Assembly: GCF_049969415.1 (NCBI RefSeq)
Contig: NZ_JBMFOX010000003.1
Span: 8,960-72,959, forward strand
Length of the DNA: 64,000 nt
Source of the DNA: Candidatus Hadarchaeum sp.
GTDB taxonomy: Archaea; Hadarchaeota; Hadarchaeia; Hadarchaeales; Hadarchaeaceae
Direction: 5' to 3'
Shown piece by piece: positions 17,576 through 52,073 of the stretch. The notes beneath the pieces are model-generated. The model made no database searches and was not told where the DNA came from. It saw nothing but the letters and a program-made list of their open reading frames with translations. Every line of letters begins with the position of its first letter. Within the stretch, counting starts at the first letter, position 1. A program made the translations under genes and the position numbers.

Positions 17576-17687
17576 TGGCGGGCCCGGTGGGATTCGAACC
17601 CACGACCGATCGGTTAGCTCCCAATCGACCGTTAAGAGCCGATTGCTTTTGGCCGGAAACCCGACTGCCAGACTGAGCCACGGGCCC
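17576..17687 (-). tRNA. tRNA-Lys(CTT) with two introns (22/23: 17648-17664; 37/38: 17615-17632)
   Basis: Spliced: GGGCCCG TG GCTC AGTCTGGCA GAGC A ATCGG CTCTTAA CCGAT CGGTC GTGGG TTCGAAT CCCAC CGGGCCC G CCA; first intron has a clean BHB (TGGC/GCCA), second a relaxed motif. Confidence 0.92.
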
Positions 17688-36191: not shown

Positions 36192-36328
36192 AGCCCGGTG
36201 GGGTAGACCGACTGGGGTCGGGCCCAATGGTCAATCCTGCGGGCCTTTGGAGCCTGCGACGGCGGAGGGCAATAACCCGCCGAATTCGAACGTCGACGGG
36301 TCGACCGAATTTCCGCCCCGGGCTACCA
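36192..36328 (+). tRNA. tRNA-Gln(TTG) with three introns (15/16: 36207-36227; 53/54: 36266-36284; 59/60: 36291-36311)
   Basis: Spliced: AGCCCGG TG GGGTAG TGGTCAATCCT GCGGGC CTTTGGA GCCTGC GAC GGCGG TTCGAAT CCGCC CCGGGCT A CCA; BHB central helices GGGT/GCCC, CGGC/GCCG, TTCG/CGAA; A1-U72. Confidence 0.93.
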
Positions 36329-38143: not shown

Positions 38144-38276
38144 AGCCCCGTGGGGTAGACCCGCCGCTGGCGGGGCCCATCGGTCAATCCTGGCGGGCAC
38201 CAGCTGGCCGCAATCTGGACCCGCTGACCCCGGTTCGAAATCGACAGCGTCGACGGGAATCCGGGCGGGGCTACCA
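38144..38276 (+). tRNA. tRNA-Gln(CTG) with three introns (15/16: 38159-38180; 32/33: 38199-38213; 59/60: 38240-38259)
   Basis: Spliced: AGCCCCG TG GGGTAG CGGTCAATCCT GGCGGG CTCTGGA CCCGCT GAC CCCGG TTCGAAT CCGGG CGGGGCT A CCA; BHB helices GGGT/GCCC, GCGG/CCGC, TTCG/CGGG. Confidence 0.93.
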
Positions 38277-47167: not shown

Positions 47168-47429
47168 CCGTGCCAAATCCCCATGCATCGCGTGGGTTGC
47201 ACTGCGCTGCCCAACATCCTCGCTTTGCTGGGGCAGAGTATGGTTTGATTTCTATCTCATTTTGTCGGTTTAATTTTTCGCGATGGCGATGGTAGGGCAA
47301 CAACCGGCGTTTTGAGGGATATAAACCTAGATGGAAATTCAAACCGTGCTCAAAAATCGATCCTTGTCAATAGGCCTCCTTTGACAGAAATCCGCCGGTA
47401 TCTTCCTCATTCGGTTCAGTGAAAAAAGG

Positions 47430-47599
47430 TGCGGGGGGAGGGATTTGAACCCTCAACATTCGGATATCAGACCTAGGAGTCTTCAGTTTTGCCCCTTGAG
47501 AGCTGTCCCCCAAGGTCCGACACTATTGAGCCAGGTTTTACCTGGTCTCCCATTTCAATCCGGTGGCGGCTTTCCACCAGATGGTTGAGTTACCCCCGC
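47430..47599 (-). tRNA. tRNA-Phe(GAA) with four introns (D-loop: 47553-47582; 22/23: 47525-47546; 30/31: 47488-47516; 37/38: 47466-47480)
   Basis: Spliced 74 nt: GCGGGGG TA ACTC AACCTGGGA GAGT G TCGGA CTGAAGA TCCGA ATGTT GAGGG TTCAAAT CCCTC CCCCCGC A; each intron has an inner hairpin and BHB-type junctions. Confidence 0.9.
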
Positions 47600-47736
47600 A
47601 CCTTCAAATTCTCTGTAGTTTGAAGTTAAAAAATGCTACCCCACCGCTAGATGTGCGGATGCTCCACGACCAGATAAAACCGGCAGAGTTCGATAAAGGA
47701 TACGGATTATAAGACCGGGCGCGATAACCTAAGCTG

Positions 47737-49083
47737 ATGGCGATGACCGGCTACCGGGGTGAGGTGCAGAGAATTTTGCGCGCGGCGTCGGTGAAGGTGG
47801 GCGACAAGATCAAGGCGGTGAGCCGCGGCCGCACCTATGTCGGCGTCCTGATGCCCCGCACCGAGCTGGGCGATCCCGATCATCTGGTCCTCAAGCTGGA
47901 CAACGGCTACAACATCGGGGTGAAGGTCGGCCGGAGCACCAAGGTGGCCTTGCTCGAGAGCCGGGAACTGCCGAAGCTGGCGGTGCCCAAACCCGCGGTA
48001 GTTCCGGACGCGAGCAAGCCTCGGGTAACGATAGTCGGCACCGGGGGAACCATTGCAAGTCGGGTCGATTACCGCACCGGAGCGGTCTATCCCGCGTTCA
48101 CCGCCGAGGACATCTACAACGCGGTTCCGGAGATAGCTGAGATTGCCAACGTCAAGGTGGTCCAGGCCTGCAACGTCTTCAGCGAGCACATGATCCCGGA
48201 GCTTTGGGCGAAGGTAGCCCGGATTGTGGCCAAGGAGATCAACGACGGGGCCACGGGAGTCGTGGTGGCCCATGGCACCGATACCATGGGGTACACCGCC
48301 GCCGCGCTGAGCTTCATGCTTCAGGGATTGTTTCGCCCCGTGGTTCTGGTCGGGTCGCAGAGGTCCTCCGACCGGCCGAGCAGCGACGCCGCCCTGAACC
48401 TGATTTCAGCGGTCGCGGTCGCCGCCAAATCGGACATCGCCGAGGTGACCGTGGTCATGCACGGGTCAACCGAGGATGATCATTGTCTGATCCACCGGGG
48501 AACCAAGGTTCGGAAGTGCCACACCAGTCGCCGGGATGCCTTTCAGAGCATCAATGATATCCCTTTGGGCATGGTCAGAGAGGGCCAGATCGTGATGTTC
48601 CGCGATGACTACCGCCGCGCTGGTTCCGCGGGCCGGGTCAGGGTGCAGGACAGGCTGGAGAAGAGGGTGGCCTTGGTGAAGACTACACCGGGATTGCCCG
48701 CAAGTGTCATCAAGGGCATCATCGCTTCTGGCGACCGCGGAATTGTCCTTGAGGGCACGGGGCTGGGCCACGTCCCCCAGACCCTGTTTGAGGGCATTGA
48801 ACTGGCCCAGAGAAGGAAGATCCCAGTGGTGATGACATCGCAGTGCCTCTGGGGCAGGGTCGACATGAACGTTTACTCCACGGGCCGTGAACTGCTCCAG
48901 CTCGGCGTCATTCCTGCGGAGGACATGCTTCCTGAGGTGGCTTGGGTGAAGCTGATGTGGGTGCTGGGCAGGACTAGAGATCTGGAAAGGGTTGCCAGGT
49001 TGATGCGGCAGAACCTGGCCGGGGAGATAACGCCGCGAACCCGACCCGATGCTTTTCTTAAACCTCTCTTCACGCCCGGATAG
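47737..49083 (+). CDS. gatD: Glu-tRNA(Gln) amidotransferase subunit D
   Basis: KLDNGYNIG, TGGTIASRVDYRTGAV, HGTDTM, SQRSSDRPSSD. Confidence 0.97.
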   Translation: MAMTGYRGEVQRILRAASVKVGDKIKAVSRGRTYVGVLMPRTELGDPDHLVLKLDNGYNIGVKVGRSTKVALLESRELPKLAVPKPAVVPDASKPRVTIVGTGGTIASRVDYRTGAVYPAFTAEDIYNAVPEIAEIANVKVVQACNVFSEHMIPELWAKVARIVAKEINDGATGVVVAHGTDTMGYTAAALSFMLQGLFRPVVLVGSQRSSDRPSSDAALNLISAVAVAAKSDIAEVTVVMHGSTEDDHCLIHRGTKVRKCHTSRRDAFQSINDIPLGMVREGQIVMFRDDYRRAGSAGRVRVQDRLEKRVALVKTTPGLPASVIKGIIASGDRGIVLEGTGLGHVPQTLFEGIELAQRRKIPVVMTSQCLWGRVDMNVYSTGRELLQLGVIPAEDMLPEVAWVKLMWVLGRTRDLERVARLMRQNLAGEITPRTRPDAFLKPLFTPG

Positions 49084-49089
49084 CCGCCA

Positions 49090-49995
49090 CTATAATACCG
49101 CAAGGCCTCGCAGCGCGAAGACCGCCGCCATGCTGAGCAGCGTGGGCACGAACAGGCTCTGGGAGGTTGCCCTGACGTCAAGGTTGAACCGGGAGATGAT
49201 CAGCAGGTTGGTCACGGCGGGCGGCATCAGCGCCATGATGAGGAGGGTGTTTCTCACTGCCTCAGCAGGGTTAAAAATCGCCGCCAGAATCACGGCGATA
49301 ATTGGGGAGATCACCAGCCGGTTAACCGTGATGAGGCCGGTGGTGCGGTTGCCGAAGATGAGGAAGGATTCTTTAGAGAGGGGGATGACCATGCCGACCC
49401 AGATCAGGCTCAGGTAGACCGTGAGCAGGCCGAACTGATGCAGCCAGAAAAAAGCCGCCGTTTCCGCAAACCACCCCACCACAGGCTGCAGCAGCAGGCC
49501 GAGCAGGAACCCCAACAGCGGCGGGTAGGTGGCGGACCGGACTAAAACCTTTTTCTCAAACCTCCCGTGGCCCCAGTAGGAGGCAAGAAAGACCCCGACC
49601 GTGTTGTGGAGGATCATCGTGGGCAGCGAGAAGAGCAGGGCCGCGGAGAGGTCGCCGTAGAAGGCGTAGATGAGGGGGAAGGGCAGGAAGATGTTGTTGA
49701 AGAAGGTCGAGTTGATAACGACTGTCCCCAGCTCCCTTTTGTCAGACCTTCGGGAGGAGAGATAGCTCACGCCGAAGCATAACCCCACGTAGATAACCGA
49801 GAGCAGCAGGATGTTTTCCAGTGTGATTCCGGACAGGTCGGCTTTGAAAATCTCGGCGAACATCAGAATTGGCGCCATGATGTTGATGAGGAGGAACTCG
49901 AGATGCTTTGCCTTAAGACCGAACCTGACCCGGCCCAGCAGGATGCCCAGCAACATCAGCGAAGGCATCAGCACAATGTTGGTTAAGTCGCTCAA
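49090..49995 (-). CDS. AEC (auxin efflux carrier)-like membrane transporter
   Basis: ~10 hydrophobic helices, F.N..F..P, MPPAV.N; start approximate. Confidence 0.8.
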   Translation of the reverse strand: MSDLTNIVLMPSLMLLGILLGRVRFGLKAKHLEFLLINIMAPILMFAEIFKADLSGITLENILLLSVIYVGLCFGVSYLSSRRSDKRELGTVVINSTFFNNIFLPFPLIYAFYGDLSAALLFSLPTMILHNTVGVFLASYWGHGRFEKKVLVRSATYPPLLGFLLGLLLQPVVGWFAETAAFFWLHQFGLLTVYLSLIWVGMVIPLSKESFLIFGNRTTGLITVNRLVISPIIAVILAAIFNPAEAVRNTLLIMALMPPAVTNLLIISRFNLDVRATSQSLFVPTLLSMAAVFALRGLAVL

Positions 49996-50165
49996 TTCAT
50001 CCCCCCCATCGATACTAATGCTTATGTTGGTGAAATCATAGTGAATAAGAATCCCTCTGCTGATAAGGTTATTTCTGGAGATTTTCTCCGATGGCGGATC
50101 CGTTTTCAGCGATTGGAATCCCGCTGGTACCGCAACCCCTTTACTAAAATACCTCTTCAGCAAAG

Positions 50166-52073
50166 ATGGATTTGATGGGAAAAACGGACATCGATTATCG
50201 CGGGATAGGGCTGCGCGTGGGCTTTGAGATCCACCAGGAGCTGGAAACGTCCAAGCTCTTCTGCAGCTGTCCCTCCCGGCTCCGTGACGATGTCCCGCGC
50301 CTGCAGGTGAGGCGGAGGTTGCGCCCGACCCAGAGCGAGCTGGGCGAGGTCGACCGCGCTGCCCTTGCCGAGGCGATCAAGGGCAAGGCCTTCAACTATC
50401 AGGTTTACCCCGACACCGTCTGCTTGGTCGAGCTTGATGAGGAGCCGCCCCACCCGGTGAATGAGGAGGCGCTCGATATCGCGCTCGAGGTAGCGCTCCT
50501 GCTTGAAGCCAGCCCTGTCGACGAGGTCCACGTGATGAGGAAGATCGTCATCGACGGCAGCAACACCTGCGGCTTCCAGCGGACGATGCTTGTGGCCACC
50601 GATGGCAGCCTCATGATCGACGGCAGGAAAATCGACATCCCGACGATATGCTTGGAGGAGGATGCCGCTAGGAAGGTGGGTGAGAACGGCGAGGTGGTGG
50701 AATACCGTTTGGACCGGCTTGGAATTCCGCTCATCGAGATTGCCACCGGACCGGACTTTACTGACCCGGAAAATCCGGCCAAGGCGGCGCTTTACATCGG
50801 GCAGTTGCTTCGCGCCACCGGTCGGGTGAAACGTGGTCTGGGGACCATCCGGCAGGACATCAACATCTCCATCGCCGGTGGTGCCCGCCAGGAGATCAAG
50901 GGGGTGCAGGAGCTGGGCCTCATCACCACCGTGATCGAGCGGGAGGTGCAGCGGCAGCTGGCGCTTCTTGAGATTCGTGAGGAGCTGAAGCGGCGCGGCG
51001 CGAGGGGAGCGGAGAAAAGAATAGTCGAGGTCACGGAGTTCTTCTCGAAAACCGGTTCCAAGCTGATTCAGAGGGCACTGGCGGCGGGAGGTTCGGTGCT
51101 GGCGTTGAAGCTGGAGAAGTTCGCCGGTCTCCTCGGCAGGGAGCTTCAGCCCGGGCGAAGGTTTGGAACCGAGCTGTCTGACCGGGCCAAGACCTACGGC
51201 AAGGTCGGTGGAATCTTTCACACTGACGAACTTCCCGGCTACGGCATCTCCGCCGAGGAAGTAGCCCAAGTGAGGCAGAAGCTAGGTGCCGGAGAACTGG
51301 ACGCCGTGGTGCTGGTCGCAGAGCGGAGAGAGAAAGCGGTGGCAGCTCTCGAGGCGGTAGCGGATCGGGCCAATGAGGCGCTGGCCGGAGTTCCCGAGGA
51401 AACGCGTCGGGCTTTGGAAGATGGCAACACCGAGTTCATGCGTCCCCTGCCCGGGGCCAGTCGCATGTATCCCGAGACGGACATCCCGCCCATCCCGATA
51501 ACCCGAACCAGGATTAAAAAAATCAGGGGCCAGCTCCCCGAGCTGCCGGAGAGGACGCGGGGCAGGCTCGTGGAAAAATACCGGCTGAGCCAGAACTTGG
51601 CCGAGCGGCTGAGCCTTTCCGAGAACCTGAGCTTGTTTGAGGAGCTGGTAGCAGAGACAAATGCCGACCCGACCTTGGTGGCGGCAACTCTGGAGGAGAC
51701 CCTCGTCAGCCTGCGCCGCGAGGGGATCAAAGTCGAGGGGATAACCAAGGAGCTGCTGCTGGAGATGTTCCGGTGGGTGGCGGACGGAAAGCTGGCCAAG
51801 GAGGCTGTCCCCGAGGTGCTCAGGCTGGCGGCGCAGGGCCTTGGCGTTCCGGAGGCAGTGGAGAGGCTCGGGCTCTCCCGGCTCAGCCCCGAGGAATTGG
51901 AAAGGCTGGTCGCCGCGACCGTCGCCGAGAATCGGAAGCTGGTTCAGGAGAGAGGGATGAATGCCGTTGACCCGCTCATGGGCCTTCTGATGGCCAAGGT
52001 CAGGGGAAGGGCCGACGGAAGATTGGTCCATGAGCTTTTGAGAAAGGAGATTGAAAATTTCCTCAACACCTGA
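50166..52073 (+). CDS. gatE: Glu-tRNA(Gln) amidotransferase subunit E
   Basis: GFEIHQEL.T.KLFC, LVELDEEPP, IDGSNT.GFQRT, RGLGTIRQD, RPLPGASRMYPETD. Confidence 0.97.
   Translation: MDLMGKTDIDYRGIGLRVGFEIHQELETSKLFCSCPSRLRDDVPRLQVRRRLRPTQSELGEVDRAALAEAIKGKAFNYQVYPDTVCLVELDEEPPHPVNEEALDIALEVALLLEASPVDEVHVMRKIVIDGSNTCGFQRTMLVATDGSLMIDGRKIDIPTICLEEDAARKVGENGEVVEYRLDRLGIPLIEIATGPDFTDPENPAKAALYIGQLLRATGRVKRGLGTIRQDINISIAGGARQEIKGVQELGLITTVIEREVQRQLALLEIREELKRRGARGAEKRIVEVTEFFSKTGSKLIQRALAAGGSVLALKLEKFAGLLGRELQPGRRFGTELSDRAKTYGKVGGIFHTDELPGYGISAEEVAQVRQKLGAGELDAVVLVAERREKAVAALEAVADRANEALAGVPEETRRALEDGNTEFMRPLPGASRMYPETDIPPIPITRTRIKKIRGQLPELPERTRGRLVEKYRLSQNLAERLSLSENLSLFEELVAETNADPTLVAATLEETLVSLRREGIKVEGITKELLLEMFRWVADGKLAKEAVPEVLRLAAQGLGVPEAVERLGLSRLSPEELERLVAATVAENRKLVQERGMNAVDPLMGLLMAKVRGRADGRLVHELLRKEIENFLNT

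Follow-up and report, generated by a model that had tools for sequence, protein, structure and literature searches.

Four BHB introns in a tRNA-Phe(GAA) gene of a Hadarchaeota archaeon, and a partly fixed order of splicing predicted from their overlapping motifs

On the minus strand of positions 47430-47599 of the window, by which we mean the whole 64,000-nucleotide stretch of DNA that we analyzed, we identified a pre-tRNA-Phe(GAA) of 170 nt, including the discriminator A, which is divided into five exons by four bulge-helix-bulge (BHB) introns. The reading that we favor, and which we regard as probable, is that these are four ordinary BHB introns, which would be removed by repeated cleavage by the endonuclease EndA, ligation by RtcB, and refolding of the RNA, with the order of removal only partly fixed and with the overlap of neighboring motifs arising from their spacing. 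One dependency between neighbors is solid: the outer helix of intron 4 depends on the removal of intron 3, just as the outer helix of the 59/60 intron depends on the removal of the 53/54 intron in the tRNA-Gln(TTG) gene of the same window.

Results

A tRNA-Phe(GAA) gene in five pieces

The reverse complement of 47430-47599 opens with the acceptor strand GCGGGGG and closes with the T arm, the complementary acceptor strand and the discriminator A. In tRNA numbering, the introns are located at 17/17a, 22/23, 30/31 and 37/38, and the segment 47466-47582, where the earlier note had placed a set of overlapping BHB motifs, coincides exactly with the stretch bounded by introns 1 and 4, both included. 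The features of this locus are listed in the order of transcription, with ^ marking the predicted cleavage site in each bulge.

47626..47634, minus strand: putative archaeal promoter, read from the sequence as an A/T-rich, TATA-like box that lies some 30 nt upstream of the gene
47583..47599, minus strand: exon 1 (positions 1-17), from alignment to intronless genes
47553..47582, minus strand: intron 1 (30 nt, at 17/17a); the central helix TCAA/TTGA lies between the bulges CC^A and AA^T, with 8 bp in the inner and 1 bp in the outer helix
47547..47552, minus strand: exon 2, micro-exon TGGGAG (17a-22, 6 nt), all of it used by the central helix and 5′ bulge of intron 2
47525..47546, minus strand: intron 2 (22 nt, at 22/23); the central helix TGGG/CTCA (one G.T) lies between the bulges AG^A and AT^A, with 6 bp in the inner helix
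47517..47524, minus strand: exon 3, micro-exon AGTGTCGG (23-30, 8 nt)
47488..47516, minus strand: intron 3 (29 nt, at 30/31); the central helix TGTC/GGCA lies between the bulges GG^A and AA^A, with up to 9 bp in the inner helix
47481..47487, minus strand: exon 4, micro-exon ACTGAAG (31-37, 7 nt), with the GAA anticodon
47466..47480, minus strand: intron 4 (15 nt, at the canonical 37/38); the central helix CTGA/TCTG lies between the bulges AG^A and AT^A, with about 2 weak pairs in the inner helix
47430..47465, minus strand: exon 5 (38-73)
47422..47427, minus strand: run of six T (T6), a putative terminator after the gene, read from the sequence

Our criterion for a BHB motif was the presence, at each exon-intron boundary, of two 3-nt bulges and a 4-bp helix, with cleavage after the second bulge base. 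All four junctions have this 3-4-3 geometry, with every bulge being 3 nt long; the central helices of introns 1, 2 and 3 have 4/4 pairs, and that of intron 4 has 3/4 with a T.T mismatch. The cleavage positions given here are those predicted by the BHB motif together with the intronless orthologues. The 30/31 placement, which is ambiguous from the window alone, was fixed by three relatives (L008, L009 and L012), in which the first intron base is T or G.

When 41 related genomes were searched at the DNA level, the orthologues differed in length and included intronless 74-nt tRNA-Phe(GAA) genes (L015, L026, L029 and L030), and alignment of the spliced exons with the relatives' genes showed them to be identical to the intronless orthologue L015 at 74 of 74 positions. 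The minimum-energy fold of this 74-nt intron-free product at 37°C is the cloverleaf, and the gene is 95-97% conserved in four genomes of the same genus. We then have motif statistics across the phylum from 48 of 50 Phe genes that could be parsed with a regular expression (L064 and L088 were dropped). The central helix of intron 1 has 4/4 pairs in 12 of 12 genes, with a compensatory fourth pair, between exon base 15 and the intron, that is A-T in 6 and G-C in 6; that of intron 2 has 4/4 pairs in 12 of 14 genes; and that of intron 3 has 4/4 pairs in 32 of 33 genes, its third pair being T.G in 17, T-A in 6 and C-G in 10. The central helix of intron 4 is relaxed, with 4/4 pairs in 4, 3/4 in 25 and 2/4 in 2 of 31 genes. 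With exons that match L015 throughout, and with covariation between exon and intron in the central helices of both intron 1 and intron 3, the pattern goes beyond chance.

This is the sole tRNA-Phe(GAA) gene detected in the host assembly, which is 95% complete (1.47 Mb, 138 contigs, 54% G+C): the 5′-end pattern of the Phe gene has a single match in the host genome, and ARAGORN calls no other Phe gene there. The gene should therefore be essential, and has to work. The source is a hot-spring Hadarchaeota archaeon, and the protein encoded beside tRNA-Phe is 80-84% identical to Hadesarchaea and Candidatus Hadarchaeum proteins. On the opposite (plus) strand, directly downstream of the tRNA-Phe promoter region, 47737-52073 carries ORFs of 448 aa and 635 aa, the first of which is widely conserved in archaea (531 relatives).

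Neither ARAGORN, with intron mode on or off, nor Rfam at its gathering score calls the Phe or the Gln genes. The only tRNA of the window called by ARAGORN is tRNA-His, with Rfam at the gathering score calling tRNA-His and a gene at 17579-17687, and a permissive Rfam scan finds the T arm only. Since standard tRNA finders miss such genes, Hadarchaeota tRNA sets will look incomplete. We found 0 reads of pre-tRNA-Phe RNA in the single raw metatranscriptome (X22), and no splice joints in four runs. A 170-nt contig in X8 covers the Phe gene almost exactly; X8 is probably DNA, and contig breaks are expected at the ends of conserved genes, so that this contig is not counted as evidence. The 3′ flank of the gene (47422-47429, minus strand) reads CC and then T6, whereas a full CCA is encoded in the Phe orthologues of the same genus (L002-L005), and the 3′ end of the host tRNA would therefore need the CCA-adding enzyme.

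Shared bases and the order of removal

The motifs of the four introns tile tRNA positions 12-38 almost gap-free. Our analysis confirms two instances of base sharing that had been pointed out earlier, namely that T17a is both the third base of the 3′ bulge of intron 1 (AA^T) and the first base of the central helix of intron 2 (TGGG/CTCA), and that C32 and T33 of exon 4 are common to the outer helix of intron 3 and the central helix of intron 4 (CTGA/TCTG). In the primary transcript, the outer helix of intron 3 consists of the pairs G24-C32 and A23-T33, plus a G.T pair with the last base of intron 2. When complete motifs are compared in this transcript, bases with conflicting roles occur at positions 48-49 between introns 1 and 2 (2 bases), 75-76 between introns 2 and 3 (2 bases), and 113-116 between introns 3 and 4 (4 bases), with none found between introns that are not neighbors.

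The outer helix of intron 4 is the anticodon stem, the 5′ strand of which (T27-G30) provides the central helix and bulge of intron 3 and is interrupted by that intron. Computing outer-helix lengths over all 15 intron-bearing splice states demonstrated that this helix is limited to 1 bp by the presence of intron 3 and reaches 5 bp without it, and in relatives it goes from 1 to 5 or 6 bp on removal of intron 3 in 31 of 31 genes bearing intron 4. For intron 3, the outer helix starts at 3 bp in the primary transcript and shrinks to 2 bp after removal of intron 2; for intron 2, it starts at 0 bp, with a marginal gain to 1 bp after removal of intron 1; and for intron 1, it is 1 bp in every splice state. 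As introns 1 and 2 have at most one outer pair whatever the splice state, the presence of a complete motif cannot be used to rank one against the other. The earlier view that the overlaps impose an order is thus supported for intron 3 before intron 4, where the gain in outer helix is large. Intron 1 probably precedes intron 2, but as a weak preference, since the conflict is of one base and the gain is from 0 to 1 bp.

Constrained folding of the BHB cores

For constrained folding with ViennaRNA, we forced a BHB core as its central pairs, the first two inner pairs and the six unpaired bulge bases; the nearest-neighbor model ignores protein binding and tertiary contacts. Forced singly in the primary transcript, the cores of introns 1, 2, 3 and 4 cost 1.3, 3.3, 4.8 and 11.7 kcal/mol over the ensemble at 37°C, and 1.7, 2.8, 3.2 and 9.1 kcal/mol at 70°C, respectively. 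Forcing neighbors jointly costs 5.1 kcal/mol for introns 1 and 2 (4.6 as the sum of the single costs), 8.3 kcal/mol for introns 2 and 3 (8.1 summed), and 14.1 kcal/mol for introns 3 and 4 (16.5 summed), with the T17a-A pair dropped in the first of these combinations. All four cores together cost 19.1 kcal/mol against 21.1 summed at 37°C and 16.5 against 16.7 summed at 70°C, and T17a-A is the only pair that had to be given up. L017, which carries both of the D-loop introns, has T.T in place of this pair, which so appears dispensable there.

It had been proposed that adjacent motifs cannot all form at once, and this fails for the cores, which are compatible at additive cost; neighboring motifs do exclude one another when their outer helices are counted. 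In the folding model, the cores can stand as four tandem hairpins, and it is the outer helices, together with a single base pair, that would make the motifs mutually exclusive. The BHB of intron 4 is never favored by the thermodynamic model, costing 9-14 kcal/mol whatever the splice state (with intron 4 as the sole remaining intron, 11.4 kcal/mol at 37°C), and therefore the folding numbers cannot rank the intron 4 site. A thermodynamic ranking of splice states was rejected as evidence of order, with small differences between states for introns 1-3 (0.8-5.9 kcal/mol), a sign that flips with temperature, and an intron 4 motif that is never favored.

The same arrangement in tRNA-Gln(TTG)

The window contains a second gene in which adjacent BHB motifs share bases, and for which the pattern of the mature sequence is confirmed by intronless orthologues (L055, L056, L057 and L060).

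36192..36325, plus strand: pre-tRNA-Gln(TTG) with three BHB introns
36207-36227, plus strand: intron at 15/16
36266-36284, plus strand: intron at 53/54
36285-36290, plus strand: micro-exon TTCGAA
36291-36311, plus strand: intron at 59/60

In the intron at 53/54, the central helix, CGGC/GCCG, is perfect, and T55, C56 and G57 form an outer helix of 3 bp. The central helix of the 59/60 intron is TTCG/CGAA, the 5′ strand of which is T54-G57. The reported use of TTC from the 59/60 helix by the bulge and outer helix of the 53/54 intron is therefore correct, with T54 being the third bulge base, and T55 and C56 lying in the outer helix. The outer helix of the 59/60 intron is the T stem, which goes from 0 bp to 5 bp after removal of the 53/54 intron. 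In a relative from the same genus (L042) the 53/54 intron is present without the 59/60 intron, and the tRNA-Gln(CTG) gene of the window has a T-loop intron without a 53/54 intron.

A natural series of intron layouts

Our census covered 66 Hadarchaeota genomes, in 52 of which the Phe 5′-end pattern was matched, and recovered 50 complete Phe genes; L080, L082, L091 and L092 were excluded as being non-tRNA or without an end. The layouts found were as follows.

Introns 3 and 4: 23 of 50 Phe genes
Intronless: 11 of 50
All four introns: 9 of 50, in several genera
Introns 1 and 2: 2 of 50
Introns 1, 2 and 3: 2 of 50
Intron 2 only: 2 of 50
Intron 1 only: 1 of 50

Introns 1, 2 and 3 are each found without a neighbor in some relative, and intron 4 is never found without intron 3 (32 of 32 with intron 3); these counts come from kin genomes and are not independent events, and kinship may explain why intron 4 always accompanies intron 3. 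Some genes have the D-arm pair but lack the anticodon pair (introns 1 and 2 in 2 genes), and others have the reverse (introns 3 and 4 in 23); by these layouts the two pairs are mutually independent. The idea that introns occur only as the pairs 1 and 2 or 3 and 4 held in the first 26 genes and was discarded when the 50-gene census broke the pattern, with intron 1 alone in 1 gene, intron 2 alone in 2, and introns 1, 2 and 3 together in 2. By this series, none of the motifs depends on a neighboring intron to work; for genes in which both neighbors are present, it holds no direct information on the order.

Splicing enzymes

The host genome contains a single EndA gene, on contig C9 of genome G000, encoding an alpha-type protein of 179 aa (TIGR00324, 126 bits) that aligns end to end with the homotetrameric enzyme of M. 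jannaschii (1a79), with no obvious insertion against that enzyme in the phmmer alignment. No EndA paralogue was found in the host genome at E<=10, and the enzyme is presumably a homotetramer. An RtcB ligase gene is also present (G000:C4). At L031:1246-2889, also on C9, the EndA gene adjoins a 367-aa ORF, which has its ATG right after the EndA stop codon.

Complementarity between intron 4 and the D-loop

When splice intermediates were folded, pairing between intron 4 and the D-loop appeared repeatedly. In the window, intron 4 (47466-47480, minus strand) has in its 5′ part CTCCTAGGT, which is complementary to A15-G22 of the D-loop (47547-47585 region) over 9 pairs, a length that is reached by 1 of 300 shuffles of intron 4. 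Of 24 distinct intron 4 sequences (loci L007-L081), 21 have six or more contiguous pairs to mature positions 13-25, and for 19 of those 21 this stretch is the best target anywhere in the tRNA; in most relatives, the 5′ segment of intron 4 is TTCCCAG. Across 22 aligned genes with introns 3 and 4, 82.9% of the cells of a 7-pair helix are paired, against 26.6-61.3% with the partner slid, and 24 of 500 shuffles reach the observed score. One pair is changed on both sides, being C-G in 14 genes and T-A in 2 (CTGGG/CCCAG against TTGGG/CCCAA), with the T-A genes possibly sharing ancestry. These comparisons are suggestive of a pairing between intron 4 and the D-loop. In the four-intron gene, the D-loop target becomes contiguous only after removal of intron 1, and it overlaps the central helix of intron 2.

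Two roles for this segment were considered and rejected. The helix with the D-loop is a poor candidate for an inner helix of the intron 4 BHB formed in trans, as the geometry that we infer for a 15-nt intron leaves no linker between the D-loop-binding segment and the central-helix strand. A box C/D guide for methylation of G18 was suggested by the CTGA that follows the segment, but there is no C box, and CTGA is not kept in relatives.

A more speculative reading is that intron 4 is not passive, with its 5′ segment forming a selected helix of 7-9 bp with C16-G22. Such a helix would compete with the central helix of intron 2 and would be geometrically incompatible with the BHB of intron 4 itself, so that it may delay the splicing of intron 4 for as long as the D-loop and anticodon stem are still incomplete, or may extend the 2-bp outer helix of intron 3; a micro-exon of 6-8 nt, for its part, would be lost by a double cut made before ligation. 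If true, motif tiling and intron-exon pairing would together constitute a built-in safeguard for splicing one intron at a time, a proposal that we put forward tentatively and consider unlikely as it stands.

Discussion

A preferred reading and its alternatives

In the pathway that we favor, EndA would recognize one motif and cut at both of its bulges, RtcB would join the exons, and the RNA would refold and so present the next motif. Intron 3, whose helix-bulge-helix-bulge-helix motif is already complete in the primary transcript, would be removed before intron 4, which gains the anticodon stem as its outer helix only then; the same order would apply in tRNA-Gln(TTG), with the 53/54 intron removed before the 59/60 intron. 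We infer these two orders because in each case the earlier intron splits the cloverleaf stem that serves the later one as its outer helix, and because the other helices of the later intron are weak. The maturation by cycles of cutting, ligation and refolding that the earlier note proposed is thus the expected route, at least for intron 3 followed by intron 4, with the order otherwise not fixed. Each micro-exon pairs almost exclusively with intron sequence, and therefore a double cut before ligation would free a piece of 6-8 nt that nothing holds, which would argue for splicing one intron at a time, in whatever order.

The principal alternative is that there is no obligatory order, with the cores folding as tandem hairpins, EndA cutting each independently, and proteins or residual pairing holding the fragments until RtcB acts. 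The additive cost of joint folding means that EndA could in principle cut any site first, the pair at T17a is absent in L017, and the census layouts with intron 1 only (1 of 50), intron 2 only (2) or introns 1, 2 and 3 (2) show each of these introns without a neighbor, as do the 53/54 intron of L042 and the T-loop intron of tRNA-Gln(CTG). Against this, until intron 3 is gone, intron 4 has an outer helix of one pair, a central helix of 3/4 pairs and almost no inner helix; an oligonucleotide freed by a double cut would pair only with an excised intron; and two EndA tetramers would hardly fit on motifs that lie 0-1 nt apart. On balance we think independent cutting rather unlikely. The further possibility that the gene is decaying or non-functional, and that the introns are insertions that are never removed, would account for its being missed by ARAGORN and by Rfam at the gathering score. 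This we regard as extremely improbable, since it is the only Phe gene found, its exons are identical to those of an intronless orthologue, every insertion lies at a 3-4-3 BHB motif with covariation, the gene is highly conserved within its genus, and both EndA and RtcB are present.

The earlier note had also raised the possibility that the overlap is a regulatory or checkpoint device, which we considered as one selected for quality control that would gate the supply of tRNA-Phe. The four-intron layout is conserved in 9 of the 50 Phe genes across several genera, and the 5′ part of intron 4, being complementary to the assembled D-loop, could in principle sense that D-loop splicing is finished. 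However, the intronless genes in 11 of the 50, together with the intermediate layouts of others, indicate that the layout is dispensable; the same overlaps are seen wherever BHB introns are 6-8 nt apart, as in tRNA-Gln; and we found no regulator, alternative product or condition-dependent signal, and no evidence of a checkpoint. We hold such a device to be very unlikely. The overlap of the motifs is more probably a by-product of BHB spacing that is close to the minimum than a dedicated regulatory device.

Relation to known systems

Ordered splicing of closely spaced archaeal introns is already published, and the Phe gene is a new example rather than a new mechanism. In PMC8450103 (2021), archaeal tRNA genes are described as having up to three introns, and in some of them two or three introns lie so close that one must be removed before the BHB of the second can form; PMC3978253, citing Sugahara 2007 and Tocchini-Valentini 2009, likewise notes that archaeal tRNA introns which are nested or lie close together are removed in order. 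The multi-intron pre-tRNAs of Thermoproteales/Crenarchaeota, as presented in PMC8450103 and PMC3978253, resemble the Hadarchaeota gene in that a motif is complete only after removal of its neighbor, with successive cleavage and ligation. They differ in having up to three introns (PMC8450103) rather than four, in introns nested one inside another rather than placed side by side with micro-exons of 6-8 nt between them, and in an (alpha-beta)2 enzyme in place of the single alpha-type EndA gene found in this Hadarchaeota host.

Disruption of tRNA genes and an alpha4-type EndA are known from Hadesarchaea (Kaneta et al. 2018, PMC5829648); the part of that paper available to us gives a survey figure for one genome (YNP_N21), in which the Phe gene, motif tiling and splicing order are not described, and reports an insert in loop L3 of the EndA, unlike the host EndA, which has no obvious insertion against the M. 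jannaschii enzyme (phmmer). In Asgard archaea, a 2026 preprint reports up to five intervening sequences per tRNA gene, with most tRNA genes interrupted, many at D-arm sites missed by standard software, and with BHB-compatible sites, all of which is similar to what we see here; it concerns another phylum, and term searches of its text gave no discussion of splicing order or micro-exons and no mention of Hadarchaeota. In the red alga Cyanidioschyzon merolae, RT-PCR of intermediates showed that multi-intron pre-tRNAs are processed in a preferred order, with the 37/38 intron always last (PMC3728597); this is a eukaryote in which the motifs fold independently, and the order tracks motif stability rather than shared bases (PMC3728597). 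Our search of the literature on BHB four-intron tRNA genes and on Hadarchaeota/Hadesarchaea tRNA introns found no published description of the host tRNA-Phe gene.

The known splicing mechanism is left unchanged by this gene, which shows a lineage with a single alpha-type endonuclease keeping its only tRNA-Phe gene in five pieces, with exons down to 6 nt. The phylum offers a natural series of 0, 1, 2, 3 and 4 introns in the same gene, and this series, combined with one small enzyme, is a convenient system in which to ask how long an outer helix EndA needs and whether ligation must precede the next cut.

Further interrupted tRNA genes

Several other interrupted tRNA genes were noted. Four-intron tRNA-Gln(TTG) genes occur in relatives at L038:1440-1594 (G021) and L039:1507-1662 (G014), both with two D-loop introns separated by a micro-exon of 5-6 nt, TGGTC(A). 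On the 5-nt reading, the central helix of the second intron (G15-T-G-G / CCAC) spans the first splice junction and would therefore be complete only after the first splice, an order dependence that, on that reading, would be stricter than any in the window. The tRNA-Gln(CTG) gene of the window (38144-38273, plus strand), missed by ARAGORN and by Rfam at the gathering score, contains three BHB introns (38159-38180, 38199-38213 and 38240-38259). The gene at 17579-17687 (minus strand; Rfam, 44.9 bits) has a D-arm intron at approximately 22/23, the central helix of which is TGGC/GCCA, and another insert interrupts its anticodon loop; ARAGORN assigns it to Arg(CCG), enumeration gives several options, and the CTCTTAA loop suggests Lys(CTT).
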